DNA from: Gammaproteobacteria bacterium
GTDB taxonomy: Bacteria > Pseudomonadota > Gammaproteobacteria > UBA1113
Direction: 5' to 3'
Assembly (NCBI GenBank): GCA_020051155.1
Contig: JAGVJK010000007.1
Coordinates: 3,636-67,635 of the forward strand
DNA length: 64,000 bases
Position 1 is the first letter of the stretch. Each line of letters begins with the position of its first letter. Both the position numbers and the translations under genes were made by a program. This document shows positions 16,834 through 63,855 of this stretch, piece after piece. Under the pieces are notes generated by a model, which was not told where the DNA came from, did no database searches, and saw only the letters and a list, made by a program, of their open reading frames with translations.

Positions 16834-16838
16834 TGCTC

Positions 16839-19560: not shown

Positions 19561-19695
19561 TTATTGATTTTAAAGGTTAATTCATCCTTGTTTCGGGAGT
19601 TACCTTGCGTAACCCACAACTGTGACTTAAGCTTATTGTTAGTCAGGACATAGCTCCTGGTTTAAGCATAGTGTCAATTTTAAAGCAAGAAGGAA

Positions 19696-20088
19696 ATGAT
19701 GATGAAGAATATATTGATAACTCTAGCCATTGCTTCAACTCTTTCTATGGGTTCAGCATTAGCGGCAGATACCATGACAACGTCCACGACCAGCACATTG
19801 CCAATGCCAGCGACATCGCCAGCGGGAACTAGTGCTACGACCACCACTAATAGTGCAATGCCAGCGGCCACCCAAGGCCAACCAGCGCCATGCCCATCAA
19901 CAACGACAACGACGAACTCTGGGGCCGCTAGCAGCAATGCAACAACGCCTTCCAGCTCGACGACAATGTCAACAACACCTAATACAACAACGACGACCAC
20001 TAGCACTACAGATGGCAGCTCTTCCACTAATGTGGATAGCTCCACAAGTGCTCCTGCTCCAACGTCTGATGACGACAGTGACGATTAA
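19696..20088 (+). CDS. secreted Thr/Ser/Pro-rich low-complexity protein with acidic C-terminus
   Basis: ORF track, 130 aa. aaggaa SD. Signal peptide MMMKNILITLAIASTLSMGSALA. The rest is T/S/P/A/N-rich (TTTTTTSTT) and ends SDDDSDD. Antisense and out-of-frame ORFs here are low-complexity artefacts. Confidence 0.6.
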   Translation: MMMKNILITLAIASTLSMGSALAADTMTTSTTSTLPMPATSPAGTSATTTTNSAMPAATQGQPAPCPSTTTTTNSGAASSNATTPSSSTTMSTTPNTTTTTTSTTDGSSSTNVDSSTSAPAPTSDDDSDD

Positions 20089-20119
20089 TCGTTACGTCGG
20101 ATGAGTCTTCGGATTCAAA

Positions 20120-20312
20120 TGAGGAGGGATCATATTTATCCCTCTCAAGATGCGAAGCATCTTGAAGTGCTCCACCAGGATGGGGAGTTATTAGAGGGGA
20201 GAGATCTCCCCTCTAATTGCAAGCCCGGATTCCCCGGGTGCAGCATCTAATAAAAAGATATACCGCTCTTATCAATGTCAAAAGTCGCATTTTTATCGAT
20301 GAGCGGTATAGC
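20120..20312. repeat. composite multi-hairpin repeat, family 3, copy A (reverse orientation)
   Basis: Shares with 24288-24401 and 30759-30931 these modules: ataccgctc...gagcggtat hairpin, ttattagatgctgc.cccgg.gaa.ccgggcttgca, gggga..tcccc hairpin, and caagatgc..gcatcttg hairpin. Confidence 0.8.
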
Positions 20313-20334
20313 TCTCCTTAGTTTTATAAGTGCC

Positions 20335-21396
20335 CTAAAAAACCTGTCGCATCGCTGTTTTTGCTAATTCTAGAGTTTCATTGGCAATGGCATTGGCCCG
20401 TTGATTACCTTCTTGTAATACTGAGCGCACATAGTCCATATCTTTTTCTAGTAATAATCGCTTTTGTCGCATGGGCTCAATCAAAGCGACTAGCACATCT
20501 ACTAAACGTTTTTTGCACTCCACATCGCCGATTTCTCCATTACGATAACGGTTTTCAGCTTCACTAACCCAAGCTTTGTCTGGGTTAAAGGCTTCGTGGT
20601 AAACCCATAATGGATTATTTTCCACACGCCCTTTATCCGTTGGTTTTAAGCGTTGTGGATCGGTATACATACCCATGACTTTTTTGCGCACGGTATCGGG
20701 GTCATCGCTGAGCAAAATAGCATTATTCAAAGATTTGCTCATTTTTAATAATTGCCCTTGCTCATTGGGGCCGCCAGTGCCGATGAGTCGCTTAACACGC
20801 CCGATCATAGGGGAAATGATGGGAAATAGGCCACCTGCGGCTAAGTGTTCTTCATCCGCAAGGTGGGAGCTAATGTCACAATAAAGATGGTTAAAGCGTC
20901 GTGCAACTTCACGGGTCATTTCCAAGTGTGGGATTTGATCTTCACCCACAGGCACCACTTGCGGCCGAAAGGCTAAAATATCAGCCACCTGACCAACGGC
21001 GTACAGTAAAAAACCAAAGGGATAGTTATCACCGAGTTGTTTATCGCGAATTTCATCTTTGATAGTAGGGTTGCGCATGACACGTGGATAGGGAAGTAAC
21101 ATACTGAAAAAAAAGCACAATTCAGAAATAGCTGGCACTTCAGATTGAATAAAGATAGTACTTTTTTGGGGGTCAATGCCCGCGCTGAGGTAATCGATAG
21201 CGATATCTATAGTATGTTGACGAATTTCCTCGGGCTTATCCATGCGCGTGGTGAAGGCATGCATATTCGCTAAAATGAAAAAACAATCATACTCATCTTG
21301 CAAATGGACGCGATTTTCCAAGGAACCGACCCAATGCCCTAGATGCAATTTTCCAGTGGGCGTATCGCCGGTTAATAAACGTGGTTTTGTCGTCAT
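20335..21396 (-). CDS. trpS: tryptophan--tRNA ligase
   Basis: ORF track, 353 aa. Class I motifs TPTGKLHLGH and KMSKS. TrpRS-sized. Confidence 0.8.
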   Translation of the reverse strand: MTTKPRLLTGDTPTGKLHLGHWVGSLENRVHLQDEYDCFFILANMHAFTTRMDKPEEIRQHTIDIAIDYLSAGIDPQKSTIFIQSEVPAISELCFFFSMLLPYPRVMRNPTIKDEIRDKQLGDNYPFGFLLYAVGQVADILAFRPQVVPVGEDQIPHLEMTREVARRFNHLYCDISSHLADEEHLAAGGLFPIISPMIGRVKRLIGTGGPNEQGQLLKMSKSLNNAILLSDDPDTVRKKVMGMYTDPQRLKPTDKGRVENNPLWVYHEAFNPDKAWVSEAENRYRNGEIGDVECKKRLVDVLVALIEPMRQKRLLLEKDMDYVRSVLQEGNQRANAIANETLELAKTAMRQVF

Positions 21397-29558: not shown

Positions 29559-30752
29559 ATGGATTTATTTTCTAAAAAGAATTTAAGAAAAACAACAACA
29601 AAAACTCTTGTTGTAGCGATGGCAATTTTATTATCTGGCTGTTATTCCATTGGGCCACGAGAAGTTCGACTAGATCGAGGACGTTATAATGATATTGTGC
29701 GCGATACTGACAATGCACAGACGCTCAAAAACATTGTGCGCCTCGCGTATCTTGAAGCACCTGCTTATTTAGGTATATCAAATGTGACGGCTTCTTACTC
29801 TTTGAGTACCTCCGCATCGCCTAGTTCAACGTGGACATCCCCACCGTCGAACTCATGGAGCACGTCAATGGGGATCAGTCCTTCTTATTCAGATTCACCT
29901 ACGATTTCTTACGTACCTGTTGATAACAAAGAATTTGTTGAAGGATTGTTAACTCCTTTAGATTTTGGGAAGTTACAATTATTTTTTCGAGCCAGTGTGA
30001 CGAAAACAAAGTTAGTTATGCGATTGGCATTTGACCGTATTGGCACACTGGATAATGCAACGTTCTCCACCACCATCGGTGTGTCAAAGGTAACAGTGCG
30101 TCAGAAATATGAGTATCAAAAATATCTTGCTTTTGCTGAAGCCGTAGAACGTTTAATTCAAGACAAAAGGATGGCGGTTGCACTGGTTACCTATGAAGAG
30201 CGGACAGGCGCTGTACTCCAATTTCTTGACAAAGCGCCTGTAACATCAAAAGATGCTTATCTCATTAAAGATCTATTACATATTCCACAGGAATGTCAGC
30301 AAATTATTTTATTAAGTTCCGATTTGGTGCGTACAGTGAGTGAGCAAGAAGATGGGGAGCTGGTGCTCGATCAACTGAAACGCAAAAATCTTGTGTTTGT
30401 TACCTTTAGATCTATCTACGGTATCATGACCTATTTGTCGCACGGTGTGGAAATTCCAAAATCTGACATAAAAGCGCATATGGTTCGCAGAGCCATTGAT
30501 GAGAGTACGGGACAAGATTTTAATTGGAATTTGTTCCTGAATGGCGTTATGAAAGTTCATTCCAGTCGATACCTTCCTAGGAATGATATTTTTGTTGCTA
30601 CAAAGTTCCATCGGCATTGGTTCTATATCAAAGAATCTGATCATGCGTCTAAGATTGCCTTCTCCATGCTGACTCGCTTGCAGGCAGTCGTTAAAGGTGG
30701 ACAAACTGGCGGAGAGGCGGCTCCAGTTTTAACAATACCCGTGGGGCGATAA
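29559..30752 (+). CDS. hypothetical lipoprotein with Ser/Thr/Pro-rich linker
   Basis: ORF track, 397 aa. Lipobox AILLSGC. S/T-rich stretch SLSTSASPSSTWTSPPSNSWSTSMGISPSYSDSPT. No family recognised. Confidence 0.6.
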   Translation: MDLFSKKNLRKTTTKTLVVAMAILLSGCYSIGPREVRLDRGRYNDIVRDTDNAQTLKNIVRLAYLEAPAYLGISNVTASYSLSTSASPSSTWTSPPSNSWSTSMGISPSYSDSPTISYVPVDNKEFVEGLLTPLDFGKLQLFFRASVTKTKLVMRLAFDRIGTLDNATFSTTIGVSKVTVRQKYEYQKYLAFAEAVERLIQDKRMAVALVTYEERTGAVLQFLDKAPVTSKDAYLIKDLLHIPQECQQIILLSSDLVRTVSEQEDGELVLDQLKRKNLVFVTFRSIYGIMTYLSHGVEIPKSDIKAHMVRRAIDESTGQDFNWNLFLNGVMKVHSSRYLPRNDIFVATKFHRHWFYIKESDHASKIAFSMLTRLQAVVKGGQTGGEAAPVLTIPVGR

Positions 30753-36909: not shown

Positions 36910-38328
36910 TTATATTTCTTCTGGAAAATCGAAATCAGTTTCTAGTAAATTGACACCGCAGAGATCGAGGAGTTTCATTAGGTTTTCGCCTTCGGCAGTT
37001 TTATTGTGTTGCCAGTAGGCGTGGATGTAGCTTTTTAAGACGTAAGTGTATTCTGGGGTGGTGAGGACCGGGAGAATTTTTTCGGCGCGTTTGATATCTT
37101 TTTTGTTATTGTAGCGGCAGCGTTGAAATAAAATTGCAGCTAAGATTGCAGCCTTTGTGGTTTTGCGAGTAGGGCTGGCTTGGTAAAAACTTTGGATGCA
37201 TTCATTCAAGGCGATGTCCTTGTTCCATTCGCGCCAGTGGTGGAAGATATCCATGGCGAGTTTTTGTAGAGCTGCGGGTTTTTCTTGGGGATTGGCTTGC
37301 CGTAATAAAAGAAACATCATGGTTGGAAATGCGGCTTCTACATTAGCCCATGAGCAATTGCCGGTTAATTGAGATTCGATGGGAAGTTTGTGTAACAATT
37401 CCAAGCCTAAGGTTTCTATAATGCCCTCGTTAATGAATTGGCGGGATTGTTTTTTGTAAATTAATTGTTTGATGAAATTTCTGTTAAAGAGATGAGGCTT
37501 GCGCATGTAATAAATGTTGGTGCTGCCGGCGCGCTTGCTGTGTTCACCGCGATCGCAGTGTGCTAAGTAGCGCCCCATTCTTACGAAGGTGATGGCATGG
37601 CCTTCGTAGCCGACGGGGAGTACCAATAGCGGTGCTTCTAATAATTGATTAATGGTGGTGTCGTGTTGGCCGTAGTCTGTTAAGTAGTGTTTGTATTTTG
37701 ATAATTCGGAGGCAATTTGCATGGCGGCAGCGGCTTGTTTTATCAAAGGCAAATAGTCTCGGTAAGTTCGAGCAGCGTAATGATTGCGGTAGTGTTCAAG
37801 TGCGTTCAGTAATAACCCGACGGTGGTTTCAATAAAAAATCCTTCGAATTCAACTTCTAAAAAACGTTTTTCTGGGGCGCAGAAAATATCGGCGACGCCT
37901 CTTAATTCATAGAGATGTCCGAGAATTTTTGTATTGATGTAGTCATGGGCAAAATTAAAATCAGCACCACGAGCATAGAGTAATTGTTTGACGCGCTCAT
38001 GTTTATAAAGAAGAGCAAAGGTCAGGACCGGTTGCGAGCCGATGGTATAGGCATTCGGATTCGCGCCGTGCTCTAAAAGCAATTTGCATAAATCATAATT
38101 GTTGTTGTCTGCGGCCCAATGTAGGGCTGTGCGGTTGACTAAATCGGGTAAGTTAACATCGGCGCCGGCTTGTAGGAGCAACTCAGTGAGCTCTGGTTTA
38201 TTTTCAATAGCGGTTTGTATTAATGGCGTAAAACCGTATTCATCAATGGCATTGATTTCACCGCCAGCGTCGATGGCATGCCGCGCTGAATCTAAGGTAC
38301 CGTAAATGATTTCTTCACTGATGTTCAT
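36910..38328 (-). CDS. ankyrin-repeat protein with large non-ANK C-terminal domain (candidate effector)
   Basis: ORF track, 472 aa. 3-4 clean ANK repeats (GFTPLIQTAIENKPELTELLLQAGADVN; RTALHWAADNNNYDLCKLLLEHGANPN), followed by about 330 aa with no motif I can name. Confidence 0.8.
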   Translation of the reverse strand: MNISEEIIYGTLDSARHAIDAGGEINAIDEYGFTPLIQTAIENKPELTELLLQAGADVNLPDLVNRTALHWAADNNNYDLCKLLLEHGANPNAYTIGSQPVLTFALLYKHERVKQLLYARGADFNFAHDYINTKILGHLYELRGVADIFCAPEKRFLEVEFEGFFIETTVGLLLNALEHYRNHYAARTYRDYLPLIKQAAAAMQIASELSKYKHYLTDYGQHDTTINQLLEAPLLVLPVGYEGHAITFVRMGRYLAHCDRGEHSKRAGSTNIYYMRKPHLFNRNFIKQLIYKKQSRQFINEGIIETLGLELLHKLPIESQLTGNCSWANVEAAFPTMMFLLLRQANPQEKPAALQKLAMDIFHHWREWNKDIALNECIQSFYQASPTRKTTKAAILAAILFQRCRYNNKKDIKRAEKILPVLTTPEYTYVLKSYIHAYWQHNKTAEGENLMKLLDLCGVNLLETDFDFPEEI

Positions 38329-39519: not shown

Positions 39520-41124
39520 TCAAAATATTTTTGAAAGAGAAAGAAGTTGTAAATCTCCCATTTTCAATGCATCTAAATATCCTTGCTCTGCTGCTAGATG
39601 AAAATAATTTTTTGCAGACTCTTCATCGGCACCAACACCATGGCCTTGAGCGTAGAGCATGCCTAATTCATTATTAGCGCAAATCATTTTTTGCTGTGCA
39701 GCCTGTGTTAACCAGTTTATAGCTTCACGATAATCGCGCGGAACACCGCGCGCAAAGGCATACGCTAATCCAATTTTGTATTGTGCAACAGCATTATTTT
39801 GTTGCGCTGCTGCTAAATAAAGTGCAGCGGCTTTCTTTTTATCTTGCGCAATGCCAACACCGCTTTCATAGGCATTCGCAAGTTCAGTCATAGCCTGTGG
39901 ATCTTGTTTTTTTGCTGCGACTTTAAACCACTTCACAGCCAGGCCCATATCTTTAGCTAAGACAGGATTGCCGCGCCTATATTCTAAACCGAGATAATAA
40001 GCAGCGGGTGCAAAGGATTGTTCTGCGGCTTGTGTTAGATAATGAACGTAGTGCGACCAATTGGGTTGTTGCTCGGGATTATCATGGTAAAGCACGGCCA
40101 GTAAAAATTCTCCCTCTGCATCTTTTTGCTTTGCTGAAGTTTGTGCATAGTAAAATGCTTGTTGATAATTGCTGGGAATTCTTTTTCCAGTGGCATAAAG
40201 CACACTTAATTGATTTTGCGCCGGCGCAAAATTTTGATCAGCAGCTTTTTTCAAAAGGTTAAGACCCGCTTGGGGATCGCTTTGTGTTCTTAAATAATAA
40301 CGAGCAGTGATGGTTAAGATCCTAGGATCTTTAGAACGGCTTGCTTGATTAAAATAATAGAGCGCGCGGTTGTTATCTTTTGTAATGCCCATGCCTTCCG
40401 CATACAAAGCGCCTACTACTAAGGCTGCGCGACTATCACCAGCATCCGCCGCAGGTTTTAATAAGAAAAATGCTTCATGATAATTACCTTGTTTTAAATA
40501 CAACTCTGCCAGCGCATCGACAGGTAACGCACGATAATAAGAACTCATGGCAATGGTGCCCCAGAGTAAAGGCGCTAATACCACAGCAAGCCAATTCCAA
40601 CCACCAAAATGATCATCGGTTTTGTAACGCAAAACACGTTGTTGATTTAAATGATTCACTGCTTGTTGTAAGGTACTCATGATGAACGCCAATAAGCAGG
40701 TAGTTAATAAACTCGTGGTTAAATACGTAAACCAAGGCAAGGGGTAGCGAACCGTGATACCCGGAAAAAGACCAGGTAGCATCAATAATTGCGCCGCTAG
40801 CAGCATCACATACAACGTGTTGGGGCGCCACCATGGTTTTAATTCAGCAGCGCGACATTGTCGATGAATGTCACGAACCAAGGGTAAAAAGAAAATGATA
40901 CTCAAGATTCCCATGAGCAAAGTGAGTATCCACTGAATGAGATTGTGTTGTTGAGGATATTTGTGTTGAACATAACGATGATAATTAGTTAAAAACCAGC
41001 GCAGACTATACCAGCCTGCCGTGAGAAAGCTCAGCCATAGAATTTTTTTAGTGGATGTAGCGAAATATTCAACGGAATTATTCGTAAATTGAGTTGGAGT
41101 ATCCGTCGTAATCGGAGCGTTCAT
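39520..41124 (-). CDS. polytopic membrane-anchored Sel1-repeat (SLR/TPR-like) protein
   Basis: ORF track, 534 aa. N-terminal ~190 aa contain about 5 hydrophobic helices. The rest is about 8 Sel1-type repeats (A...LG.LY..G.G...D...A..WF..AA.QG...A). Confidence 0.8.
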   Translation of the reverse strand: MNAPITTDTPTQFTNNSVEYFATSTKKILWLSFLTAGWYSLRWFLTNYHRYVQHKYPQQHNLIQWILTLLMGILSIIFFLPLVRDIHRQCRAAELKPWWRPNTLYVMLLAAQLLMLPGLFPGITVRYPLPWFTYLTTSLLTTCLLAFIMSTLQQAVNHLNQQRVLRYKTDDHFGGWNWLAVVLAPLLWGTIAMSSYYRALPVDALAELYLKQGNYHEAFFLLKPAADAGDSRAALVVGALYAEGMGITKDNNRALYYFNQASRSKDPRILTITARYYLRTQSDPQAGLNLLKKAADQNFAPAQNQLSVLYATGKRIPSNYQQAFYYAQTSAKQKDAEGEFLLAVLYHDNPEQQPNWSHYVHYLTQAAEQSFAPAAYYLGLEYRRGNPVLAKDMGLAVKWFKVAAKKQDPQAMTELANAYESGVGIAQDKKKAAALYLAAAQQNNAVAQYKIGLAYAFARGVPRDYREAINWLTQAAQQKMICANNELGMLYAQGHGVGADEESAKNYFHLAAEQGYLDALKMGDLQLLSLSKIF

Positions 41125-45808: not shown

Positions 45809-46450
45809 ATGCATAAACTAAGAAGTTATCTTATGGCGGGTTTACTCGTCTGGTTGCCGATCATTGTAACCTTGTTAATTATTCGATTTATCATTGGATT
45901 GTTAGATGGTGTCTTTGGTTTGCTGCCCGCTAAGTATCAGCCAGATTATCTATTTGGTGTGCATATTCCAGGGTTAGGGATTATTTTATCAGTGATTATT
46001 CTGTTAATTACTGGCCTTACGGTTACTAACTTTCTGGGTAAACAACTCGTGGGATACTGGGATGCACTGATGGCGCGGATTCCCTTGGTGCGCTCCATTC
46101 ATTCAGGCGTGAAACAAATTTTACATACCATGTTTACCCCTGATGGCCCGGCATTTCGTAAGGTTTTATTAGTCGAATATCCGCGACGAGAGATGTGGAG
46201 TATCGCTTTTCAAACAGGCAAAGTGAGCCCTAAGGTTAAAAAAGTATTGGAAGAAGATATGGTTACTATTTTTATTCCTACTACGCCTAATCCTACCTCA
46301 GGATTTCTCATGATTGTACCACGAGCGGATACCCGCGAAGTGGATTTAACGGTGGACGAAGCGTTAAAATTGGTGATTTCCTTAGGCGTGGTGCAGTCAG
46401 CATCAGAGCTGGCGGCATCAAAGATTGGTTCTGTCAATTCCAACACTTAA
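45809..46450 (+). CDS. DUF502-family membrane protein
   Basis: ORF track, 213 aa. Two N-terminal TM helices. Conserved IPTTPNPTSGF motif. Confidence 0.75.
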   Translation: MHKLRSYLMAGLLVWLPIIVTLLIIRFIIGLLDGVFGLLPAKYQPDYLFGVHIPGLGIILSVIILLITGLTVTNFLGKQLVGYWDALMARIPLVRSIHSGVKQILHTMFTPDGPAFRKVLLVEYPRREMWSIAFQTGKVSPKVKKVLEEDMVTIFIPTTPNPTSGFLMIVPRADTREVDLTVDEALKLVISLGVVQSASELAASKIGSVNSNT

Positions 46451-47233
46451 GTTCTCACAATCATATAAAAAATTGTCGCCGGCGAGATAATGGTATTCCT
46501 TAACTCGACTGGCGCGAATCGCATCCGTTTGATCTTCAGAAGCAAAACCAGGATGGCACATGATCAAGCCATCTCTTTTAATCGTACCGCAAAATTTTTG
46601 AAATAAATCTCCGTAATAGAGCGTGGGATCAAAATCATAAATGCCAGCAAATTCTGAATTATGAGGAATGTTCGCTTGTTGTAATTGTTGGTGTAAGATT
46701 TTAGCGCCGGTATGATTGATCACCCAACGCTTTTTAGCGTAGGGGCCTTGTTGTGTCAGAGTTTGTCGGATATAAGGGCGTTGCTCAGTGAAGGTTTTTT
46801 GGTACACATTTAAAAGGGCATCGCGAATAATAGGGAATTGATGGACATGTTGATGACCATCAATAAAATCCGGTAAGCGGCCCATGATTTTTTGGAATTG
46901 TTCTAATTGCGCAATTAACTCTTGTTCTACTTCGGCGAGGGTTATGTGATGCACATAACAACGTAGCAATAAAGCAGGTAAAGAAAAAAATGAGCCCTGT
47001 TGAGATAAACTAGGCGCAGCGGTTAATGGTTTGCCAAAGGTTAAATTGAAATGTAAGCCAACGGCGACATCTGCAGCCATCTCACGTAACGCTGGGCCAT
47101 GGCTATGCCAGCCGGGGAGATTAGTCATGCAACTCACAGCCGATAAACGTTTTTTAGAGACAAGATCTAAAATTCCTAGGCTAATATCCTCATTTTGCCC
47201 AAAATCATCAGCACATAGAATGATTGACTTCAT
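46418..47233 (-). CDS. YdjC-family carbohydrate deacetylase (NaxD/ChbG-like)
   Basis: ORF track, 271 aa. N-terminal MKSIILCADDFGQNEDISLGILDL (YdjC DDFG metal-site motif). HQH..P segment (DGHQHVHQFP). Confidence 0.75.
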   Translation of the reverse strand: MKSIILCADDFGQNEDISLGILDLVSKKRLSAVSCMTNLPGWHSHGPALREMAADVAVGLHFNLTFGKPLTAAPSLSQQGSFFSLPALLLRCYVHHITLAEVEQELIAQLEQFQKIMGRLPDFIDGHQHVHQFPIIRDALLNVYQKTFTEQRPYIRQTLTQQGPYAKKRWVINHTGAKILHQQLQQANIPHNSEFAGIYDFDPTLYYGDLFQKFCGTIKRDGLIMCHPGFASEDQTDAIRASRVKEYHYLAGDNFLYDCENLSVGIDRTNL

Positions 47234-47321
47234 TTTAGCGATTCCCCTATACTTTGCTCAAGTTTTTTCTCTACAAGAGACAAACATGATTGGATATGGT
47301 ATTTCCTAAGCAAGCACATAA

Positions 47322-47472
47322 AGCGTGCCTTCTCCCCTTGAGGGAGAAGGTGGCCGAAGGCCGGATGAGGGGTATTCAAATTCAGGTAAAATACTTTATC
47401 GAAGTTAACTGATTTAGATCACCCCTCATCCGCCCTTCGGGCATCTTCTCCCTCAAGGGGAGAAGGCACGCT
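47322..47472. repeat. 151-bp palindromic repeat, family 2, copy 1
   Basis: Terminal ~50-bp IRs agcgtgccttctccccttgagggagaaggtggccgaaggccggatgaggggt / acccctcatccgcccttcgggcatcttctccctcaaggggagaaggcacgct, each with internal mini-hairpins. Confidence 0.85.
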
Positions 47473-47561
47473 ATGGCATGTTTTTTTTCGAAGTTTGACA
47501 TCCATTTATTTTGTTTTCTGCAGAGGTGTTTCCCCCGTTAGAGATATTTCAGGATACTATC

Positions 47562-49106
47562 ATGCCAACAACCAACATGTCATTCACCAGTCGTAAGACG
47601 TGGTTTGGGGATGCCTTCATTATTTTTGTGGTAGCCAGCATAGTCATGGCGTTGTTTTTGGGATCCCATGCCTTAATCACGCCTGATGAAGCGCGGTATA
47701 CTGAAGTTGCGCGAGAAATGCTGAGCTTCCACAATTACATCACACCCATGGTGAATGGTGTGGTTTTTTTAGATAAACCCATTCTCTTTTATTGGTTGCA
47801 AGCGTTGAGTATGAAATTGTTCGGTGTCAATGAATGGGCCATTCGCTTGTGGCCAGCATTATTTGGTGTGTTTGGCGTACTCGGTGTGTATCTAGCGGGA
47901 CGTAAACTTTATGATCGAACCACGGGTTGGTTATCCGCGTTGGTGCTATTAACGAGCCCTTTGTATTTCGGCGCTGCTCATTATGTCAATATGGATTTGG
48001 AAGTGGCAATTTGGGTGAGTGGGGCTTTGTTTTCTTACTTGATTGCCATGACAACAGCTTCTTATCGACGGCGTTGGTTGATCGTCGCTTATGTATTTGC
48101 AGGGTTAGCGATCTTAACGAAAGGTTTGTTAGGCTTAGCCTTTCCTATGATGATCATTGGTGCCTGGTTGTTGGTGCAAGGCCGCTGGCGTTTGTTACGT
48201 GACATGTCGATTCCCTTAGGCTTTTTGATCATTGCTCTCATAGTATTGCCATGGTTTATCTTGGTGCAGCGCGCAAATCCTGATTTCTTTCATTACTTTT
48301 TTGTGGTGCAACAATTCTCGAGATTTTTAACTCAGCAATTTAATAATGTGATGCCGGTTTGGTTTTATTTGCCAATTATTTTAGTCGGATTGTTGCCTTG
48401 GACGTTGTTTTTACCGCAGGCAGTGATGCAGCAGATTCGGAAAATAAAAGTCGCAGAGGAACGCGGAGTTAGTTTATTTTTATTGTTGTGGCCCTTGCTG
48501 ATTTTTATTTTCTTTTCTATTCCCTCTTCAAAAATTGTAGGTTATATCTTGCCAGTTATACCGCCTTTGGCCTTAGTGATTGGGCATTACCTCGCGCAGC
48601 AATGGCAGCGTGTCGATACCACCGAGTTTTTGACAACCCGGAAAAAAGTATTGAGTTTGGCAGGGCTATCTTTGGTATTATTGGTCAGTGCAACAGCTAT
48701 GATGCCGCGGGTTTCATTACCGTCGATTAAGCCCTTTTTGCCGACAATTACCGCGCAACGAACACCGCAAACAAAAATCGTGTCATACCAGCATTTTTAC
48801 CAAGATGCGCCTTTGTATTTACAGCAGAGAATTATTTTAGTCGCTAATTGGGATGATCCTGCATTACAAAAAGCCGATGATTGGCGACGAGAATTACTAC
48901 CAGGAGTGGAGCAAAATCCTGCTTCTCGTCAATGGATGTGGAATGAAACGCAATTCTGGCAACAATGGCATAGCACAACGCCGTTATTAGTGTTATTACC
49001 GAAAAGCCGTTTATCTGCATTTAAAGAGCGAGCGCAATCAGCCGTTGAAGTATTACAACAAAAGGATCGTATTGTATTGGTATCGAATGTTTTGGGTAAA
49101 AATTAA
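47562..49106 (+). CDS. ArnT-like GT-C glycosyltransferase (PMT_2 family), paralog 1
   Basis: ORF track 47511..49106. ATG at 47562 follows agga. Polytopic. Motifs ITPDEARYTEVAREM and FLDKPILFYW are typical of undecaprenyl-phosphate-sugar-dependent ArnT/PMT enzymes. Confidence 0.8.
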   Translation: MPTTNMSFTSRKTWFGDAFIIFVVASIVMALFLGSHALITPDEARYTEVAREMLSFHNYITPMVNGVVFLDKPILFYWLQALSMKLFGVNEWAIRLWPALFGVFGVLGVYLAGRKLYDRTTGWLSALVLLTSPLYFGAAHYVNMDLEVAIWVSGALFSYLIAMTTASYRRRWLIVAYVFAGLAILTKGLLGLAFPMMIIGAWLLVQGRWRLLRDMSIPLGFLIIALIVLPWFILVQRANPDFFHYFFVVQQFSRFLTQQFNNVMPVWFYLPIILVGLLPWTLFLPQAVMQQIRKIKVAEERGVSLFLLLWPLLIFIFFSIPSSKIVGYILPVIPPLALVIGHYLAQQWQRVDTTEFLTTRKKVLSLAGLSLVLLVSATAMMPRVSLPSIKPFLPTITAQRTPQTKIVSYQHFYQDAPLYLQQRIILVANWDDPALQKADDWRRELLPGVEQNPASRQWMWNETQFWQQWHSTTPLLVLLPKSRLSAFKERAQSAVEVLQQKDRIVLVSNVLGKN

Positions 49107-50065
49107 AATCCAATTTTCTTCGATATGATATAGAGCGGGCGCTGTTTTACTTCATTAAAAATACGACCAATGTATTCACCTAAGATCCCAATGGACAGTA
49201 ATTGAATGCCGCCTAAGAACATAATGGCGACAATCAACGTAGCGAAGCCTGGGGTTTTCGCACCAAAAAATAAAGTTTCACCAATGATGCAAAGTGCATA
49301 AATAAAAGAGATGAGAGAAATTGCAAAACCAATGACGCCCCAGAATCGCAATGGGATTTCAGAAAAAGAAGTAATCCCGGTAATGGCTAGCTCCACTAAC
49401 CGGATAAAACTCCAGGAGCTTTGCCCCGCGGCGCGCTCTTGTACATCAAAGGGAACCGCCATACTAGAGTATCCAACCCATGCATAAAGACCTTTCATAA
49501 AACGACTGCGTTCATCGATTTGATTCAGAGAGTCTACGACACAGCGATCGAGTAAACGAAAGTCACCGGCATTCGGTGGAATGCTAACATTGGTGATTCG
49601 TTCCATCAGCCGATAGAAAAAGCGAGCAAAGCTGCGTTTAATGCGAGATTCATCGCCGCGACTTTTGCGCACGCCATAAACCATGTCATAACCCTCAGCC
49701 CAATGTTTTAAAAATTGAGGAATCACCTCCATTGGATGTTGAAAATCACCATCAATTAACACAACTACTTCACCGCTCGCATGTTGCAAACCCGCAGATA
49801 ATGCAATTTCTTTGCCGAAATTACGAGAAAAACGTAATAGCTTTACGGGATAAGTGTCAGTGAAGGAGAGGACAGCTTGATAAGTTTGATCCTTGCTAGC
49901 ATCATCCACCACAATGATTTCATATTGCTGACTGAGCTGCTGCGCTTGTGCATTGAGTGCTTTAAGAAACGCAGCAATCACCGGCTCCTCATTATAAGCA
50001 GGGACAATGTAGGAAATAAAAACTTGCTTATTTTCTAATCGCTTTAATCGGCCAGTTAAGGGCAT
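49103..50065 (-). CDS. GT2 polyprenyl-phosphate glycosyltransferase (ArnC/GtrB/FlmF2-like)
   Basis: ORF track, 320 aa. IVPAYNEE, IIVVDDASKD, LIDGDFQHP. Two C-terminal TM helices. Confidence 0.8.
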   Translation of the reverse strand: MPLTGRLKRLENKQVFISYIVPAYNEEPVIAAFLKALNAQAQQLSQQYEIIVVDDASKDQTYQAVLSFTDTYPVKLLRFSRNFGKEIALSAGLQHASGEVVVLIDGDFQHPMEVIPQFLKHWAEGYDMVYGVRKSRGDESRIKRSFARFFYRLMERITNVSIPPNAGDFRLLDRCVVDSLNQIDERSRFMKGLYAWVGYSSMAVPFDVQERAAGQSSWSFIRLVELAITGITSFSEIPLRFWGVIGFAISLISFIYALCIIGETLFFGAKTPGFATLIVAIMFLGGIQLLSIGILGEYIGRIFNEVKQRPLYIISKKIGF

Positions 50066-50099
50066 TGTTCAATTCTCGCATCAGTGATGAATGAACTCA

Positions 50100-51413
50100 T
50101 CATAATGAGCGAAGGTTTCTGTCGTCAAGTAAAAATCGCCATAAAGGTATTACTTCGATACCTTCGACGGAGAAGGGTGCTTTGTCCACTGGCAGATCAC
50201 GGCTCACGATTAAGCAGCGTGCCTCGGGAAACCATCGTTTTGCTACGGCTAATCCTTTAATTTCTCGTTGTTGAACTCGAGGATCGTTAAGACCATCTGC
50301 GGTGACTTGAATTAAATAACGAGTTTGATTTTTTTCACGAACTAAAAAATCTACCTCGACTTCTTTGCGCCAGTAATAAATATCTAAAGAGGCATTTGCA
50401 AGTAGTTTCAAATACACCAATGACTCCATAGCATGCCCCAGATCTTCAGAAGCGCTAATCGCTGTAATAGCTCTGAGCCCTGGATCAATGGCATGAATTT
50501 TTTGTGGGTTGCGCACACGCTCTGCACTTTTTAAACTGAAATGCGATAAGAGAGCGATCAAGAAACTTTCTTCCAAGTAGCCACAAATATTGCCTGCTAA
50601 TTCAGTGGAGATCCCAAAAATAGTGCCAATACGAGTTGCCGATAATAAAGAAGCAGAGTGCGTTAATAAATGAACGGCAATTTGTCTTAGCTGGACTAAA
50701 TCACGAATCGTATGCCGCAAAGCGACATCTCGATACAAAATATCTTCAAAGTACTGAGTTAAGATCTGTTCGCGCTTTTCATCGGAGCTAGCCATGACAA
50801 CAGCTGGGAAACCACCCCAACGCAAATAATTTAACAGTTCGTACTCGATAGCAGCTGGGGCTGTACTTAATGTTAAATCTTTTGGTAGCTCAATCTGCTT
50901 GAATCTTAATTGTTCCTCAAAGCTTAGCGGATAGACGTAGAATCTTAAGTGGCGCCCGGTGAGCAATGTTCCTAGCTCTCGTGACATTAGCTTGCCAGAG
51001 GAGCCAGTGATAAAAATTTTAATTTCCTCTGTTTCATTACGGGCTCGAACCCACTGCTCCCAATCTGGAATATTTTGGATTTCGTCAAAAAATAAATAAG
51101 CTAAACCCGTGGGAAAAATCTCAGTTCGATATGTTTTGTAAAGCTCATCCAGAGTGGCGATTGTTAAATAGGGTGCAAGGGAGGGTTCCTCAAAGTTGAT
51201 GTGCAGTATGGCACGAGGATCTACAGAATGAGTTTCAAGATGATCAATCACTTGGTATAAAAGCGTGGTTTTGCCGGCGCGCCGTGGACCAATTAGTGTG
51301 ATGATTTCTGGGCCTTCTAAGCAAGATAAAAGGGGTTTTAACAATGTTCGCTCGAAGCCTGCTGAAAGTTTAGCGTGGCCCCAACGATTCCAGCGTTCAA
51401 GAATTTCTAACAT
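50100..51413 (-). CDS. AAA+ ATPase of the COG1373 type (AAA_14 + DUF4143)
   Basis: ORF track, 437 aa. Walker A GPRRAGKTT, Walker B LFFDEIQ. C-terminal YYWRKEVEVDFLV segment resembles a PD-(D/E)xK-like motif. 34 nt upstream of, and co-oriented with, the GT2 gene. Confidence 0.8.
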   Translation of the reverse strand: MLEILERWNRWGHAKLSAGFERTLLKPLLSCLEGPEIITLIGPRRAGKTTLLYQVIDHLETHSVDPRAILHINFEEPSLAPYLTIATLDELYKTYRTEIFPTGLAYLFFDEIQNIPDWEQWVRARNETEEIKIFITGSSGKLMSRELGTLLTGRHLRFYVYPLSFEEQLRFKQIELPKDLTLSTAPAAIEYELLNYLRWGGFPAVVMASSDEKREQILTQYFEDILYRDVALRHTIRDLVQLRQIAVHLLTHSASLLSATRIGTIFGISTELAGNICGYLEESFLIALLSHFSLKSAERVRNPQKIHAIDPGLRAITAISASEDLGHAMESLVYLKLLANASLDIYYWRKEVEVDFLVREKNQTRYLIQVTADGLNDPRVQQREIKGLAVAKRWFPEARCLIVSRDLPVDKAPFSVEGIEVIPLWRFLLDDRNLRSL

Positions 51414-51423
51414 GAGATAACCT

Positions 51424-51555
51424 ATTTGTCAGGTGAAACTGATGAAACTATAGCATATTCATCAGGTGTAGTCGATGAATAATAGGTATATTCATAAGGT
51501 GTAGTCGATGAATATGCATGATATTTATCAGGTGCACCTGATGAATAGTCAAAAA
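51424..51555. repeat. four tandem 33-bp repeats, each carrying a 24-bp imperfect palindrome
   Basis: Units start at 51424, 51457, 51490 and 51523: atttgtcaggtgaaactgatgaaa / attcatcaggtgtagtcgatgaat / attcataaggtgtagtcgatgaat / atttatcaggtgcacctgatgaat. Exact 33-bp phasing. The first unit is 11 nt from the ATPase ATG. Confidence 0.85.
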
Positions 51556-51663
51556 ATCAATTTTTGATAGATTTTTTTCCAGATAAATCAGTGAGATTTG
51601 CTAGTTTAAGCTGTTAACGCCTTATGGTAAGCTGGCAGCATTTTTCTGGGAGAGTGCGGTTTC

Positions 51664-53385
51664 ATGCAACAAGGATTTGGAAAACAGGGATTTTTAGACC
51701 TAACAGCATTATTCATCGGCATTTTCATCTTTTATTTTTTGTTTTTGGGTGCACATCCCTTGTTAACACCTGATGAGGCCGGGTATACGGAAGTAAGCCG
51801 CGGGATGTTGGTGAACCACAGTTTTTGGATTCCACTGCTAAATGGCATTCCGTTTTTTGATAAGCCCCCTTTATTTTACTGGTTGCAAATGAGTGCCATG
51901 TCCGTTTTCGGTGTTTCAGAGTGGGCAGCACGTTGTCCCACGGCATTCTTGGGGACGGTGACTTGCTTGTGGCTGTATGGCGTGGGCCGAGTTTTGTTTG
52001 ACCGGTTAACCGGACTTTTATCAGCAATTGTTCTGGCCACCTCATTGTTTTATTTTCTCATGTCTCATTATGCTAATTTAGATTTATCCGTTGCGGCGTT
52101 TATTACGGCTAGTTTGTCTTGCTTTATTATTGCGATGCAATTTCCAAAGGGTAGAAAAGCAACAACACTGTTGTTATTGGCTTACTTTTTTTCAGGATTA
52201 GCGGTGCTTACCAAGGGATTAATAGGCATCGTTTTTCCTGCAATGATTGTGGGTGTTTGGCTCTTATTAACCCATCAATGGTTTTTGTGGCGTCGCTTGC
52301 ATTTAGGGTGGGGCCTATTGATTGTATTGTTGATCAATGGGCCTTGGTTATTCTTAGTGCAAAAACGGCATCCAGAGTTTTGGCATTATTATTTTTATAT
52401 CCAGCAATACAGCCGTTTTCTCGGTCATCAATTTAATAGCAAGCAGCCGATTTGGTTTTATGGTCCAGTGATTTTAGGGGGGATGTTGCCTTGGACATTG
52501 TTTTTGGGGCAAGCCATGATTCAACGCGTGAGGAGGATGGGGCTGCGCTTTAAAGAGCATGGGAATGATTTATTTTTGTTACTGTGGCCGTTATTAATCT
52601 TGATCTTTTTTTCCATTCCCGCGTCTAAAACTCTGGGTTATATTTTGCCAGCACTTCCACCGTTAGCAGTGTTAGTGGCTTGTTATCTGCGACAACATTG
52701 GTTTGATCCAGCACCATCCTCTTGGCTATTTACCTTTGTAGGAGTGCTTAGTTGTTTATTGGCAGTTGCTTTACTAGTATTTATTCAATCATTGAATCCT
52801 AAGATTCACATAACAGCCTATATCCTCTGCAGTGTTTTTATATTTCTAGGGGTTGCTCTTTGTTGGCGCTGGCGTTTAGCTTTTCGTCATGGGTGCATGT
52901 TACTGATAGCGGGTTTTGTTTTAATCATGAGCCTGTTCATGATGGATATTCGCTGGTTGCCTATTTCCAGTGCTGTACCCCTATTGCCTACATTGAAAGC
53001 TTATGAAGCCGTAGGGGTAACGGTGGTGGATTATAATCGCTATGATCGAGATTTACCTTTTTACTTAGGACATCCCACCGTTATTGTAGGAGAGTGGGAT
53101 CGAGCGGAATTGCTTGAAAGAGATAGCTGGCAGGGGGTTTTTGCTTATGCGAATCAGTATCAACGCTACCCACGACTTTGGATTTTTACGCAATTTTTTC
53201 GAGAGTTTAATAGCCAGCGGCCCCTGATCGTGGTTCTCAACAAGCGGTTTTTACCCGTTTTTCAGACCCAGAACCTGGCGCATGGACAGATTGTCCAGAT
53301 TTTTAAGGAAAAGGTTCTTCTCGTGAATCCAGCTGCTTACTTAAAATTTCGCCAGAATCTTGCGCTGCCGCCCATTTCACCGTAA
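51664..53385 (+). CDS. ArnT-like GT-C glycosyltransferase (PMT_2 family), paralog 2
   Basis: ORF track, 573 aa. LTPDEAGYTEVSRGM, FFDKPPLFYW. Clearly paralogous to 47562..49106 along its whole length (e.g. LFLLLWPLLI.IFFSIP.SK..GYILP). Confidence 0.8.
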   Translation: MQQGFGKQGFLDLTALFIGIFIFYFLFLGAHPLLTPDEAGYTEVSRGMLVNHSFWIPLLNGIPFFDKPPLFYWLQMSAMSVFGVSEWAARCPTAFLGTVTCLWLYGVGRVLFDRLTGLLSAIVLATSLFYFLMSHYANLDLSVAAFITASLSCFIIAMQFPKGRKATTLLLLAYFFSGLAVLTKGLIGIVFPAMIVGVWLLLTHQWFLWRRLHLGWGLLIVLLINGPWLFLVQKRHPEFWHYYFYIQQYSRFLGHQFNSKQPIWFYGPVILGGMLPWTLFLGQAMIQRVRRMGLRFKEHGNDLFLLLWPLLILIFFSIPASKTLGYILPALPPLAVLVACYLRQHWFDPAPSSWLFTFVGVLSCLLAVALLVFIQSLNPKIHITAYILCSVFIFLGVALCWRWRLAFRHGCMLLIAGFVLIMSLFMMDIRWLPISSAVPLLPTLKAYEAVGVTVVDYNRYDRDLPFYLGHPTVIVGEWDRAELLERDSWQGVFAYANQYQRYPRLWIFTQFFREFNSQRPLIVVLNKRFLPVFQTQNLAHGQIVQIFKEKVLLVNPAAYLKFRQNLALPPISP

Positions 53386-57154: not shown

Positions 57155-57302
57155 AAGTGCCTTCTCCCCTTGAGAGAGAAGGTGGCCGAAGGCCGGATGA
57201 GGGGTATCTAATTTAGTTAACATCAATAAAGTATTTTACCTGAATTTGGTTACCCCTCATCCGCCCGTTGGGCACCTTCTCCCTCAAGGGGAGAAGGCAC
57301 TT
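57155..57302. repeat. 148-bp palindromic repeat, family 2, copy 2 (between ruvA and ruvB; core reversed relative to copy 1)
   Basis: aagtgccttctccccttgagagagaaggtggccgaaggccggatgaggggt ... acccctcatccgcccgttgggcaccttctccctcaaggggagaaggcactt. Confidence 0.85.
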
Positions 57303-57411
57303 TTTATATGCAATTTCTATCATCTTACATTTGTTCATTTTTATCTTTTGCAGAGAAGTGCATTCGCATCTGGGCGCGAAATAGGTATACTTGCCTGCAA
57401 GTGTTACCACA

Positions 57412-59985: not shown

Positions 59986-61002
59986 ATGACAAGTACCAAA
60001 AAATCTTTGTCGCTTGCGATTCTCTTGCATATCGCAATCCTCAGTTTTTTAGTGATCGAATTAAATTTCTCTGCTACCGATGAATCAAAACCCCCATCCA
60101 TATCCATTAAACAAGATGAAACGCCCATCGTACATGCAACGGCCATCAGTCAACAACAAATTGAAAAGCAAGTTACTGCCTTGCAAGAACAAGAGCAACA
60201 ACGAAAGCTGGAGCAGCAACAACAGTTAGAACAAATGCAACAAGCTGCGGAAGCGGCACGACAAGAGCAGGTGCTAGCACAGCAGCAAATGGCAGCATTA
60301 AAACAACAGCAAGCAGAGGCCGCCCAGCAGCAACAACAATTAGCAGAAATGAAAGCGAAACAAGAGCAGGAGCAAAAAAAATTACTGGCTCAACAGGAAC
60401 AACAAAAGAAACAAAAAGAGTTAGAGGACCAACAAAAGGCTCAAGCCTTAGCGCAAAAGAAACAAAAGGAATTAGAAGATCAGCAAAAGGCTCAAGCCTT
60501 GGCGCAAAAGAAACAAAAAGAATTAGAAGATCAACAGAAGGCTCAGGCTTTAGCGCAAAAGAAACAACAATTAGCTGAACAGCAAAAAGCTGCGGCAGCA
60601 GAAGCTGAGCAAAAAAAGAAAATGCAAGCAGAGGCTGAGCGATTATTGCAGCAACAGTTAGCCAGTGATCAGCAGCAGTTAAATGCGGCAAAACAGCAAA
60701 TGCTCAATAAAGAATTAGCGCGCTACGCGAGTTTGATTAAAAACGCTATCGGTAATAATTGGAATGTCCCACAAAATGTAGCGGCCAATTTATCCTGTGT
60801 GTTATTAATTCGTATCTCTGATAATGGCCATGTCTTAGCGGTGCAGCTGGTAAAAACTAGTGGTGATCCAGTCTTAGATCGCTCTGCGGAAGCCGCTATT
60901 TATAAAGCATCACCCTTACCAGTTCCAGATAACCCAGAAATCATGCAAATGGTCCGCGAAATTCGTCTGACATTAACGCCGAAACTAAACTCTGTAGGCT
61001 GA
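59986..61002 (+). CDS. tolA: Tol-Pal system protein TolA (Q/E/K/A-rich domain II with internal tandem repeats)
   Basis: ORF track, 338 aa. N-terminal TM anchor, long QQ/EQ/KK helical region, C-terminal TolA domain III-like segment (GNNWNVP...C.L.I....G.V..V....SGD...D.SA..AI.KASPLP.P). Confidence 0.85.
   Translation: MTSTKKSLSLAILLHIAILSFLVIELNFSATDESKPPSISIKQDETPIVHATAISQQQIEKQVTALQEQEQQRKLEQQQQLEQMQQAAEAARQEQVLAQQQMAALKQQQAEAAQQQQQLAEMKAKQEQEQKKLLAQQEQQKKQKELEDQQKAQALAQKKQKELEDQQKAQALAQKKQKELEDQQKAQALAQKKQQLAEQQKAAAAEAEQKKKMQAEAERLLQQQLASDQQQLNAAKQQMLNKELARYASLIKNAIGNNWNVPQNVAANLSCVLLIRISDNGHVLAVQLVKTSGDPVLDRSAEAAIYKASPLPVPDNPEIMQMVREIRLTLTPKLNSVG
60406..60558 (+). repeat. 3 x 51-bp in-frame tandem repeat inside tolA (KKQKELEDQQKAQALAQ x3)
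   Basis: Units at 60406-60456, 60457-60507 and 60508-60558 encode identical 17-aa peptides with several synonymous differences between units. Confidence 0.9.
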
Positions 61003-63577: not shown

Positions 63578-63642
63578 TGAGGGAGTTCTCTGCAGAGGGT
63601 AAAATTTATAGATGTTGAATCTCTTGTGAAAATATCTTAAAG

Positions 63643-63784
63643 AGTGCCTTCTCCCCTTGAGGGAGAAGGTGCCCAACGGGCGGATGAGGGGTGATTAAAT
63701 TCAGGTAAATACTTTGTTGAAGAGATTCTATTAGGTACCCCTCATCCGGCCTTCGGCCACCTTCTCCCTCAAGGGGAGAAGGCG
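63643..63784. repeat. 142-bp palindromic repeat, family 2, copy 3
   Basis: agtgccttctccccttgagggagaaggtgcccaacgggcggatgaggggt ... acccctcatccggccttcggccaccttctccctcaaggggagaaggcg. Confidence 0.85.
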
Positions 63785-63855
63785 TTTTTTATGTGCTTTA
63801 TCTAGGTGTTCTGCAAGTGTTTTGCGTTTGTATTTTTTTAGAAAATACAGAGCCC

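Follow-up and report, generated by a model that had tools for sequence, protein, structure and literature searches.

Two ArnT-Like Transferases in a Probable Polyprenyl-Phosphate Hexosamine Locus of an Uncultured Gammaproteobacterium

Results

The window, which is the whole 64-kb stretch of DNA that was analysed, contains a block of five genes and two repeat features flanked on the left by proS, fmdB, and DUF502 and on the right by aspS, yebC, ruvC, and ruvA. The gene of a YdjC-family carbohydrate deacetylase (ydjC, 46418–47233, minus strand; Pfam YdjC, E = 1.6e-52) is divergent from that of a first ArnT-fold transferase, GT-C1 (47562–49106, plus strand, alternative start 47511), which in turn converges on the gene of a GtrB-type polyprenyl-phosphate glycosyltransferase, GT2 (49103–50065, minus strand; Glycos_transf_2, E = 5e-34). 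Beyond these lie an ATPase gene with AAA_14 and DUF4143 domains (50100–51413, minus strand; Pfam E = 1.8e-33 and 5.8e-20) and the gene of a second transferase, GT-C2 (51664–53385, plus strand). An earlier note on this DNA had placed all five genes and both repeats where we find them; the motifs that it quoted are present (MKSIILCADDFGQ in ydjC; VPAYNEE, VVDDASKD, and DGDFQHP in GT2; TPDEA.YTEV and F.DKP.LFYW in the GT-Cs), and Pfam and NCBIfam domain searches bear out the four enzyme classes that it named. Since the block holds no regulator gene, and only 45 bp separate GT-C2 from the co-oriented aspS downstream of it, expression is probably constitutive.

Both GT-C proteins match the PMT_2, PMT, and Arnt_C domain models, the last more weakly in GT-C2, and both are GT83-like, GT-C1 being a short form and GT-C2 a long form of 13 helices; GT-C1 is predicted to have two transmembrane helices fewer than ArnT and GT-C2. 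The likely start of GT-C1, judged by alignment, is the ATG at 47562 (514 aa) and not the TTG at 47511, because the ortholog P0001 (90% identical, 513 aa) aligns from there. The best solved match to either protein, in sequence and in fold, is ArnT of C. metallidurans (5EZM, 5F15). Sequence matches to 5EZM have E = 1.9e-53 for GT-C1 and 8.6e-53 for GT-C2 (residues 14–480), and in Foldseek the AF2 models (pLDDT 92 and 92.4, respectively) match 5F15 at E = 1.6e-25 with a TM score of 0.82 (GT-C1) and 5EZM/5F15 at E ~1e-24 with TM scores of 0.78–0.85 (GT-C2); the next-best fold classes, OST and ALG, reach ~1e-6. The catalytic and undecaprenyl-phosphate-binding residues of ArnT are retained by both enzymes: D55, K85, D158, R270, and Y345 of ArnT, which correspond to D42, K72, D145, R254, and Y328 of GT-C1, are kept in both paralogs and are invariant or nearly invariant among 37–52 family members. 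In place of the zinc-site residues H265/H267 of ArnT, GT-C1 has V/Q and GT-C2 has I/Q, and GT-C1 and E. coli ArnT share only 25% identity.

The Pfam matches to PMT and PMT_2 bear on an alternative raised in the earlier note, PMT-type O-glycosylation of Ser/Thr-rich exported proteins by the GT-Cs; the streptococcal Pgf system would be a comparable case. The window does encode a candidate target (19696–20088), a 130-aa protein with a signal peptide, predicted to be secreted and very rich in Thr and Ser, and the best NCBIfam match of GT2, though under cut-off, is PgfS of a protein-glycosylation system. The structural comparison weakens this reading, as the PMT models match true ArnT as well, including its C-terminal Arnt_C domain, and PMT structures match the GT-C models at E = 1e-5 to 1e-3, some 20 orders of magnitude weaker than ArnT (~1e-25). 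Family members 35–47% identical to the GT-Cs are located in arnBCAD operons, the Thr-rich gene is unlinked, lying 26 kb off, and the second protein put forward (29559–30752) shows Ser enrichment in a short patch only and matched no family. The linkage to ydjC, moreover, predicts a cationic sugar, and we know of none in PMT-type O-glycans. Protein O-glycosylation seems to us very unlikely.

The closest match to GT2 is the GtrB sll0501 (5EKP, 318 bits), with ArnC structures at ~160 bits; identity to E. coli ArnC is ~30%, and the NCBIfam scores for PgfS (287 bits) and ArnC (189 bits) are both under cut-off. Hydrophobic segments at residues 237–261 and 265–295 are predicted to form two C-terminal transmembrane helices. 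The earlier description of this protein as an ArnC-like GT2 was right as to its class and its paired helices, but by bit score the type is that of GtrB. The sequence of GT2 does not reveal which sugar it handles; we take GtrB, its closest solved relative, to be a glucose transferase.

YdjC is predicted to be soluble, no hydrophobic segments being found in it. Its DDFG, H-F-x-LT, and D-G-H-x-H motifs align with those of the chitooligosaccharide deacetylase 7VI8, so that the catalytic motifs are kept, and its scores against the ChbG and HpnK equivalog models fall under cut-off.

Gene linkage was studied in 80 metagenomic loci with GT-C relatives and, separately, in a comparison of 12 loci. Among the 80, ydjC occurs in 6 and arn genes in 50, with no locus holding both, and a GT2 of the window's type never accompanies arn genes. 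The 12 compared loci have only three genes in common, namely GT-C (12), ydjC (11), and GT2 (9), and ydjC forms a divergent pair with a GT-C gene in 11 of them. Because ydjC-linked and arn-linked loci do not overlap, and because this type of GT2 stands apart from arn genes, the data support a hexosamine route of the NaxD/FlmF2/FlmK and LgmABC kind rather than the Arn route. A classical aminoarabinose system, or the HpnI/HpnK glucosamine pathway of hopanoids, is suggested by the label that source databases give the GT-Cs ("4-amino-4-deoxy-L-arabinose transferase-like"), by the presence of the ArnT and ArnC models among the NCBIfam matches, and by the weak match of HpnK to YdjC. These scores lie far under the equivalog cut-offs, however (ArnT 238 vs 567, ArnC 189 vs 529, HpnK 54 vs 232 bits), no homologs of arnA, arnB, arnD, arnE, or arnF were found in the 64-kb window, and we know of no GT-C enzyme in the hopanoid pathway. 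Contradicted as it is by gene context, an Arn or hopanoid assignment is scarcely credible.

Two features of the block are later additions that lie outside the pathway. The ATPase matches PADLOC PDC-S01 (E = 8.2e-105) and is, by sequence, a candidate single-gene phage-defence system; its gene survives only as remnants in the relative L007 and is missing in L011. It is a lineage-specific later insertion, and although the earlier note located it correctly, it does not belong with the pathway genes. Directly upstream of it, the earlier note's 33-bp repeats prove to be four palindromes spaced at 33 bp (51423–51545, no strand assigned), with a consensus of approximately TTCATCAGGTG-N3-C-N-GATGAA. 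Matches to this pattern are confined to the one site in the window (5 vs 0.06 expected by chance), and L007 keeps three copies despite the decay of its ATPase gene; the palindromes are possibly operator sites. The second addition, previously listed as a family-2 repeat, is a true, MITE-like inverted repeat of ~150 bp (47322–47472, likewise without strand) in the divergent promoter region of ydjC and GT-C1. Its arms (47322–47389 and 47405–47472) are 68 nt each and 88% complementary, and two further full copies lie in the window at ~57157–57305 and ~63640–63790. The repeat is missing in L007, where the gap between ydjC and GT-C1 is 64 bp.

The earlier note had taken the block for an accessory insertion, yet it lies directly after DUF502 in all three relatives examined (AspS identity 97% and 77%, the third placed by proS at ~72%), with no G+C step seen across it. 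Both paralogs are found in these three relatives and, in two of them, down to 77% AspS identity, both lie between DUF502 and aspS. The block is thus no recent insertion; it would be an insertion solely relative to the Pseudomonas gene order cited in the earlier note, in which fmdB, DUF502, aspS, yebC, ruvCAB, and tolQRA are said to be contiguous. GT-C1 and GT-C2, 40% identical overall, fall into separate ortholog clades (bootstrap 98/100 for C1 and 100/100 for C2), with GT-C2 orthologs in L007, L011, and OFTM187, and they are ancient paralogs, each conserved separately. All four pathway genes are under purifying selection, with dN/dS of 0.03–0.09 (ydjC 0.077, vs L007; GT2 0.031; GT-C1 0.060; GT-C2 0.092).

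Discussion

We suggest that the block probably encodes a polyprenyl-phosphate-carried hexosamine pathway, in which two ArnT-like enzymes decorate the cell envelope. By analogy with FlmF2 and LgmA, GT2 is proposed to be an Und-P-HexNAc synthase, which would draw on UDP-GlcNAc or UDP-GalNAc to glycosylate undecaprenyl phosphate on the cytoplasmic side of the membrane. The soluble YdjC would then deacetylate the polyprenyl-phosphate-HexNAc, as NaxD and LgmC do, yielding Und-P-hexosamine, whose free amine is positively charged. The lipid-linked sugar would be flipped across the membrane, no dedicated flippase gene being found in or near the block, and the two GT-Cs would pass the hexosamine to periplasmic acceptors, of which the phosphates of lipid A or the lipopolysaccharide inner core seem likeliest. 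This order of synthase, YdjC, and ArnT-like transferase was already the logic of the earlier note, and the domain, sequence, and fold matches, together with the conserved linkage, support it.

Lipid A need not be the sole acceptor, since in mycobacteria the same enzyme logic reportedly serves to attach GalN to a polysaccharide, PpgS and Rv3779 being said to add it to arabinogalactan; Gtr systems, similarly, modify O-antigen. The same Und-P-hexosamine donor might therefore serve outer core, O-antigen, capsule, or another polysaccharide. Consistent with this are a GT2 that resembles GtrB and PgfS more than ArnC, the replaced zinc-site histidines of both GT-Cs, and the fewer helices of GT-C1. Three-component systems that combine a GT2 with a GT-C are also known to modify many glycans; one review carries the title [quoted passage not shown] (PMC11194591). 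We nevertheless regard such an acceptor as unlikely: the lipid A transferase ArnT is the sole solved structure close to either GT-C, the more distant family members lie in arnBCAD operons, and the characterised YdjC-dependent systems cited here all act on lipid A (PMC11279074, PMC4993483).

The paralogs probably serve different acceptor sites, or GT-C2 a different acceptor. That GT-C2 shares the same donor is an assumption, because in OFTM187 its ortholog lies beside gyrA, unlinked from ydjC, GT-C1, and GT2, which are on another contig. GT-C2 could instead draw on another polyprenyl-phosphate sugar, synthesised from genes elsewhere in the genome, leaving GT-C1 to work with ydjC and GT2, an arrangement that concerns the role of GT-C2 only and is compatible with either acceptor. 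The divergent partner of ydjC, in the window and in the relatives compared, is always a C1-type gene, the C-terminal domains of the paralogs share only 28% identity, and FlmK, needed for mannose as well as GalN addition, takes sugars from two different synthases (PMC2233673). Set against these points are the direct adjacency of GT2 and GT-C2 in the window, L007, and L011 and the finding of no second GtrB- or ArnC-type synthase within the 64-kb window, and we think split donors possible, if rather unlikely.

The hexosamine pathway that we favour has close counterparts, likened to it by enzyme class. To our knowledge, the NaxD/FlmF2/FlmK cluster of Francisella has no dedicated regulator or flippase gene, and the window block resembles it in this. 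There, the same three classes, with a synthase of the GT2 class and a GT-C that is ArnT/PmrK-like, are clustered (FTN_0544–0546; GalN on the lipid A 1-phosphate): the adjacent genes of FlmF2 and FlmK put GalN on lipid A (PMC2233673), and NaxD is a YdjC-superfamily deacetylase acting on Und-P-GalNAc (PMC11279074). The window differs in having two GT-C paralogs in place of the single FlmK and in its gene arrangement, with ydjC and GT-C1 divergent, GT-C1 and GT2 convergent, and GT-C2 upstream of aspS. In Bordetella, the BvgASR-controlled genes lgmA, lgmB, and lgmC encode the same three activities, all of them required for GlcN substitution of lipid A phosphates (PMC4993483). The window, by comparison, has two paralogs for the one required transferase LgmB, no nearby regulator, and no LgmD-like gene in the block.

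The logic of ArnC/ArnD/ArnT, which place Ara4N on lipid A in E. coli, Salmonella, and Cupriavidus, is also the same, in that a masked amino sugar is built on Und-P, unmasked, and transferred. The unmasking enzyme is YdjC in the window and ArnD, of the NodB/CE4 family, in the Arn system; GT2 is GtrB-type, and arnA, arnB, arnE, and arnF are missing. A precedent for two paralogs comes from Rhizobium, in which RgtA/B/C/D draw on one polyprenyl-phosphate sugar from a single GT2, RgtE, and decorate different lipid A and core positions, although the sugar there, galacturonic acid, is anionic and the Rgt system is not known to involve a deacetylase. The mechanism is already known, from Francisella and Bordetella, and the block would represent not a new system but a new example of it in an uncultured lineage.

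Results

The block, which has proS, fmdB and DUF502 to its left and aspS, yebC, ruvC and ruvA to its right, comprises ydjC (46418-47233, reverse strand; Pfam YdjC, E = 1.6e-52), the ArnT-like transferase gene GT-C1 (47511/47562-49106, forward; PMT_2, PMT and Arnt_C), GT2 (49103-50065, reverse; Glycos_transf_2, E = 5e-34), an AAA_14+DUF4143 ATPase gene (50100-51413, reverse; AAA_14, E = 1.8e-33) and the second ArnT-like gene, GT-C2 (51664-53385, forward; PMT_2, PMT and a weaker Arnt_C match). Our ORF map and profile searches thus bear out every gene that the earlier note had listed, at the coordinates it gave. An ortholog with 90% identity to GT-C1 aligns from the ATG at 47562, which is the likely start of that gene. 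GT-C2 is 100% identical to the protein P0121, from NCBI and JGI; an exact look-up of GT-C1 returned no entry. A scan of the sequence for promoters and terminators returned sites no more numerous than in shuffled sequence.

The Two GT-C Proteins Have the ArnT Fold

The only solved structure related in sequence to either GT-C is 5EZM, the ArnT of Cupriavidus metallidurans (E = 1.9e-53 for GT-C1 and 8.6e-53 for GT-C2). AlphaFold2 models made from alignments of 51-52 sequences reached pLDDT values of 92.0 and 92.4, and the top Foldseek match for both was again ArnT (5F15/5EZM; E = 1.6e-25 and 5.8e-25, TM 0.78-0.85), with OST and ALG enzymes next best at approximately 1e-6. Both proteins are polytopic, carry a C-terminal periplasmic domain and have ArnT as their closest relative among solved GT-Cs, the combination that defines an ArnT-type GT-C fold. 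Fold and sequence speak against membership in the PMT family (GT39): Pmt structures were closest by neither measure (E = 1e-5 to 1e-3, TM 0.3-0.56, mostly covering only ~260 residues), and the C-terminal domain is an Arnt_C match. Nor are the proteins ArnT proper, since they score 238 and 202 bits against the cut-off of 567 for the NCBIfam equivalog PRK13279.

The residue numbering of C. metallidurans ArnT was mapped onto the GT-C/ArnT alignment. We take D55, in the first periplasmic loop, to be the catalytic aspartate and K85, R270 and Y345 to be ligands of the undecaprenyl phosphate (Und-P) phosphate group; D158 was followed as well. All five equivalents are kept in both paralogs; across family alignments in which E. 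coli ArnT is included, these positions are either invariant or conserved to 90% or more. The ArnT zinc site E84/H265/H267 is absent from both: E84 is a D, and where ArnT has H265/H267, GT-C1 has V/Q and GT-C2 I/Q. In the AlphaFold2 models, GT-C1 is without two transmembrane helices that are found in ArnT and in GT-C2 (GT-C2 residues 379-400 and 407-427). Because two homologs in the GT-C1 ortholog clade, P0003 and P0004, have the long length, this loss appears to have arisen inside the clade.

GT2 and YdjC

GT2 aligns over residues 11-316 with the polyisoprenyl-phosphate glycosyltransferase GtrB (5EKP) at 318 bits; ArnC structures score approximately 160 bits. It has a GT-A domain with DxD-type motifs (VVDDASKD and DGDFQHP are present) followed by two hydrophobic C-terminal helices (237-261 and 265-295), the arrangement of a GtrB-type enzyme. 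By sequence, then, GT2 is classed as GtrB-type, and FlmF2, LgmA and ArnC are relatives of that type. That the sugar it transfers would be a HexNAc we infer solely from the conserved linkage to ydjC.

The YdjC motifs DDFG, H-F-x-LT and D-x-H-x-H align to 7VI8 and 2I5I, a search of the protein for a hydrophobic segment found none, and the protein falls well under the NCBIfam equivalog cut-offs of ChbG and HpnK. It looks like an active, soluble enzyme. A YdjC-superfamily fold with its catalytic motifs, linked to a polyprenyl-phosphate GT2 and an ArnT-like GT-C, is what characterizes deacetylases of the NaxD/LgmC type, and we regard YdjC as a candidate Und-P-HexNAc deacetylase of this type.

Gene Linkage Separates Two Kinds of ArnT-Like Genes

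A comparison of the window with 11 other genomic and metagenomic loci brought out just three common genes: GT-C (12/12), ydjC (11/12), usually the divergent partner of GT-C, and GT2 (9/12). The three are adjacent in the window, in the relatives L007 and L011, and in loci L001, L002, L013, L014, L016 and L024. No conserved flippase or regulator gene is common to the 12 loci. Another locus, L003, has its GT-C approximately 5 kb from aspS, with IS elements on both sides and a two-component system before the GT-C, and we treat that proximity as coincidental; neither ydjC nor GT2 occurs within 10 kb. Within L003 (6799-13784), two regulatory genes, encoding a histidine kinase and a response regulator of the OmpR type, stand directly upstream of the ArnT-like GT-C on the same strand. 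Upstream of this pair is a gene for an rve-type integrase, and downstream of the GT-C is one for a DDE transposase.

A metagenome scan for GT-C relatives yielded 80 loci. Genes for the aminoarabinose (Ara4N), or Arn, route (arnB, arnC, arnA or arnD) were found in 50 of them (median identity 39%) and ydjC in six, among the closest relatives (43-54% identity); no locus had both. A GT2 of the window's type occurs in 6/80; ydjC accompanies it in four of these and arn genes in none. The nearest relatives of the window's GT-Cs are linked to ydjC, not arn, and the 64-kb window itself holds no homolog of arnA, arnB, arnD, arnE or arnF. From the mutual exclusion of ydjC and arn, together with the distribution of GT2, it follows that genes called "ArnT-like" fall in two context types, one arn-linked and aminoarabinose-type, the other accompanied by ydjC and a GtrB-type GT2. 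The Arn pathway was rejected for the block, its NCBIfam cut-offs not being reached and the gene context being contrary, and the hopanoid HpnI/HpnK pathway was ruled out on the same two grounds.

An Old Block with Later Intrusions

The earlier note had taken the block for an accessory insertion, and had itself named its presence at this position in all relatives as the observation that would count against that view. In L007 and L011 the order brkB, proS, fmdB, DUF502, ydjC, GT-C1, GT2, GT-C2, aspS, yebC is identical to that of the window, down to the overlapping gene ends, and in L011 it continues with ruvCAB and tolQRA. In OFTM187, a metagenome-assembled genome, ydjC, GT-C1 and GT2 likewise follow DUF502, with a pyruvate-phosphate-dikinase gene between DUF502 and ydjC. 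L007, L011 and OFTM187 share the position after DUF502. In all the relatives examined the block is therefore ancestral at its site, the very outcome that the note had named as telling against an insertion, and the insertion claim is not supported. G+C is flat over the block (0.41-0.44); on this ground, and on that of the conserved position in relatives, we rejected recent horizontal acquisition.

OFTM187 has features of its own. A RelE/HTH toxin-antitoxin cassette, a later intrusion, lies between its GT-C and GT2, and a 2284-aa ORF without a Pfam match follows GT2. In its locus L008, which shares a contig with L001, the dikinase gene, the cassette and this ORF span 6443-8923, 11692-12386 and 13666-20520.

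The window has intrusions as well. The ATPase gene is one: it is decayed in L007 and absent from L011, and its product matches PADLOC PDC-S01, a candidate single-gene defence family (E = 8e-105), for which reasons we rejected it as a pathway component. Both repeat features reported previously are real. The four palindromes at 51423-51545, spaced at 33 bp just upstream of the ATPase gene, occur nowhere else in the window, and three of them persist in L007 despite the decay of the ATPase. The ~150-bp inverted repeat at 47322-47472 is a MITE-like palindromic element (conserved core CTTCTCCCCTTGAGGGAGAAGGTGGCCGAAGGCCGGATGAGGGGT) with two further full copies, at ~57157-57305 and ~63640-63790. The first copy, in the divergent promoter region of ydjC and GT-C1, is missing from L007 and is a later intrusion; it could change expression. 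A different, tandem repeat (51-bp unit, 3.2 copies, 89% identity) occupies 60403-60567 within the ORF at 59986-61002, which is presumed to be tolA because it has the same position as TolA in L011.

History of the Paralogs

Overall identity between GT-C1 and GT-C2 is 40%; the N-terminal 340 residues reach 52%, the C-terminal domain 28%. In a bootstrapped neighbour-joining tree with E. coli ArnT as outgroup, their ortholog clades C1 and C2 received bootstrap values of 98/100 and 100/100; the grouping of C1 and C2 as sisters is unsupported (21/100). All three relatives (L007, L011 and OFTM187) have both paralogs, the C2 ortholog of OFTM187 lying on a separate contig, where it adjoins gyrA. GT-C1 of L007 is approximately 90% identical in protein sequence to the window's, and AspS of L011 is 77% identical. 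The dN/dS values obtained by comparing the window with L007 are 0.077 for ydjC, 0.060 for GT-C1, 0.031 for GT2, 0.092 for GT-C2 and 0.032 for aspS. Both transferases are old and maintained by selection, which speaks against functional redundancy. It is not rare for one locus to hold two GT-C genes (7/80 metagenomic loci).

Discussion

The analysis shows what classes of enzyme are present, their folds, the conservation of catalytic residues and the linkage of the genes, and this gives good support, as a mode of action, to the lipid-linked aminosugar pathway that was the main functional inference of the earlier note. Which sugar is carried, which acceptor receives it and how the two paralogs share the work are our inferences. 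In the scheme we propose, GT2 would make Und-P-HexNAc, YdjC would deacetylate it to Und-P-HexN, and the lipid-linked sugar would be flipped across the membrane by a putative flippase; both GT-Cs would then hand the sugar, now cationic, on to acceptors in the periplasm, of which the phosphates of lipid A or the inner core are the most likely. The same enzyme set as in the ydjC and GtrB-type GT2 context is known from Francisella, where FlmF2, FlmK and NaxD place GalN onto lipid A (PMC2233673; PMC11279074), and from Bordetella, where LgmA, LgmB and LgmC place GlcN onto lipid A phosphates (PMC4993483). In these two genera the trait has effects on virulence, on TLR4 signalling or on resistance to cationic peptides (PMC2233673; PMC11279074; PMC4993483). 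The block is probably a further member of these known lipid-linked hexosamine modification systems, with a modest twist: an anciently diverged, conserved pair of ArnT-fold enzymes, one of them shortened.

Since the same enzyme logic serves other glycans, an acceptor glycan other than lipid A is a less probable alternative. The earlier note had also considered that the GT-Cs might O-glycosylate a Thr-rich secreted protein. A candidate of that description does exist, a 130-aa protein encoded at 19696-20088 on the forward strand, with a signal peptide, extreme Thr/Ser content (runs such as TTTTT and SSS) and no match to a Pfam family; the proposed activity is made less likely by the fold and context data. 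As for the paralogs, the unlinked position of the C2 ortholog in OFTM187 suggests that GT-C2 may use a different donor. We consider it improbable that the two split acceptor classes, one keeping lipid A while the other (the short, 11-helix GT-C1 or the aspS-linked GT-C2) puts cationic hexosamine on an acceptor not known for it in Gram-negatives, such as the Thr/Ser-rich protein or another envelope polymer. Were this so, GT83 enzymes would be extended beyond lipid A and core.

Elsewhere in the window are genes for an ankyrin-repeat protein (36910-38328, reverse), a Sel1-repeat protein (39520-41124, reverse) and a Fic-domain protein (5625-6995, forward), the last with a 40-bp tandem repeat (5512-5597) just upstream of its gene. 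These proteins suggest a host-associated, Legionellales-like lifestyle, and this uncultured gammaproteobacterial lineage is probably host-associated.

If transfer of hexosamine to lipid A is what the block accomplishes, this lineage would constitutively mask its lipid A phosphates with cationic hexosamine. For annotation, gene context tells hexosamine-type "ArnT-like" genes (ydjC with a GtrB-type GT2) from those of the aminoarabinose type (arnBCAD), which source databases name alike. The conserved paralog pair, moreover, offers a natural system for the study of acceptor-site choice by ArnT-fold enzymes.
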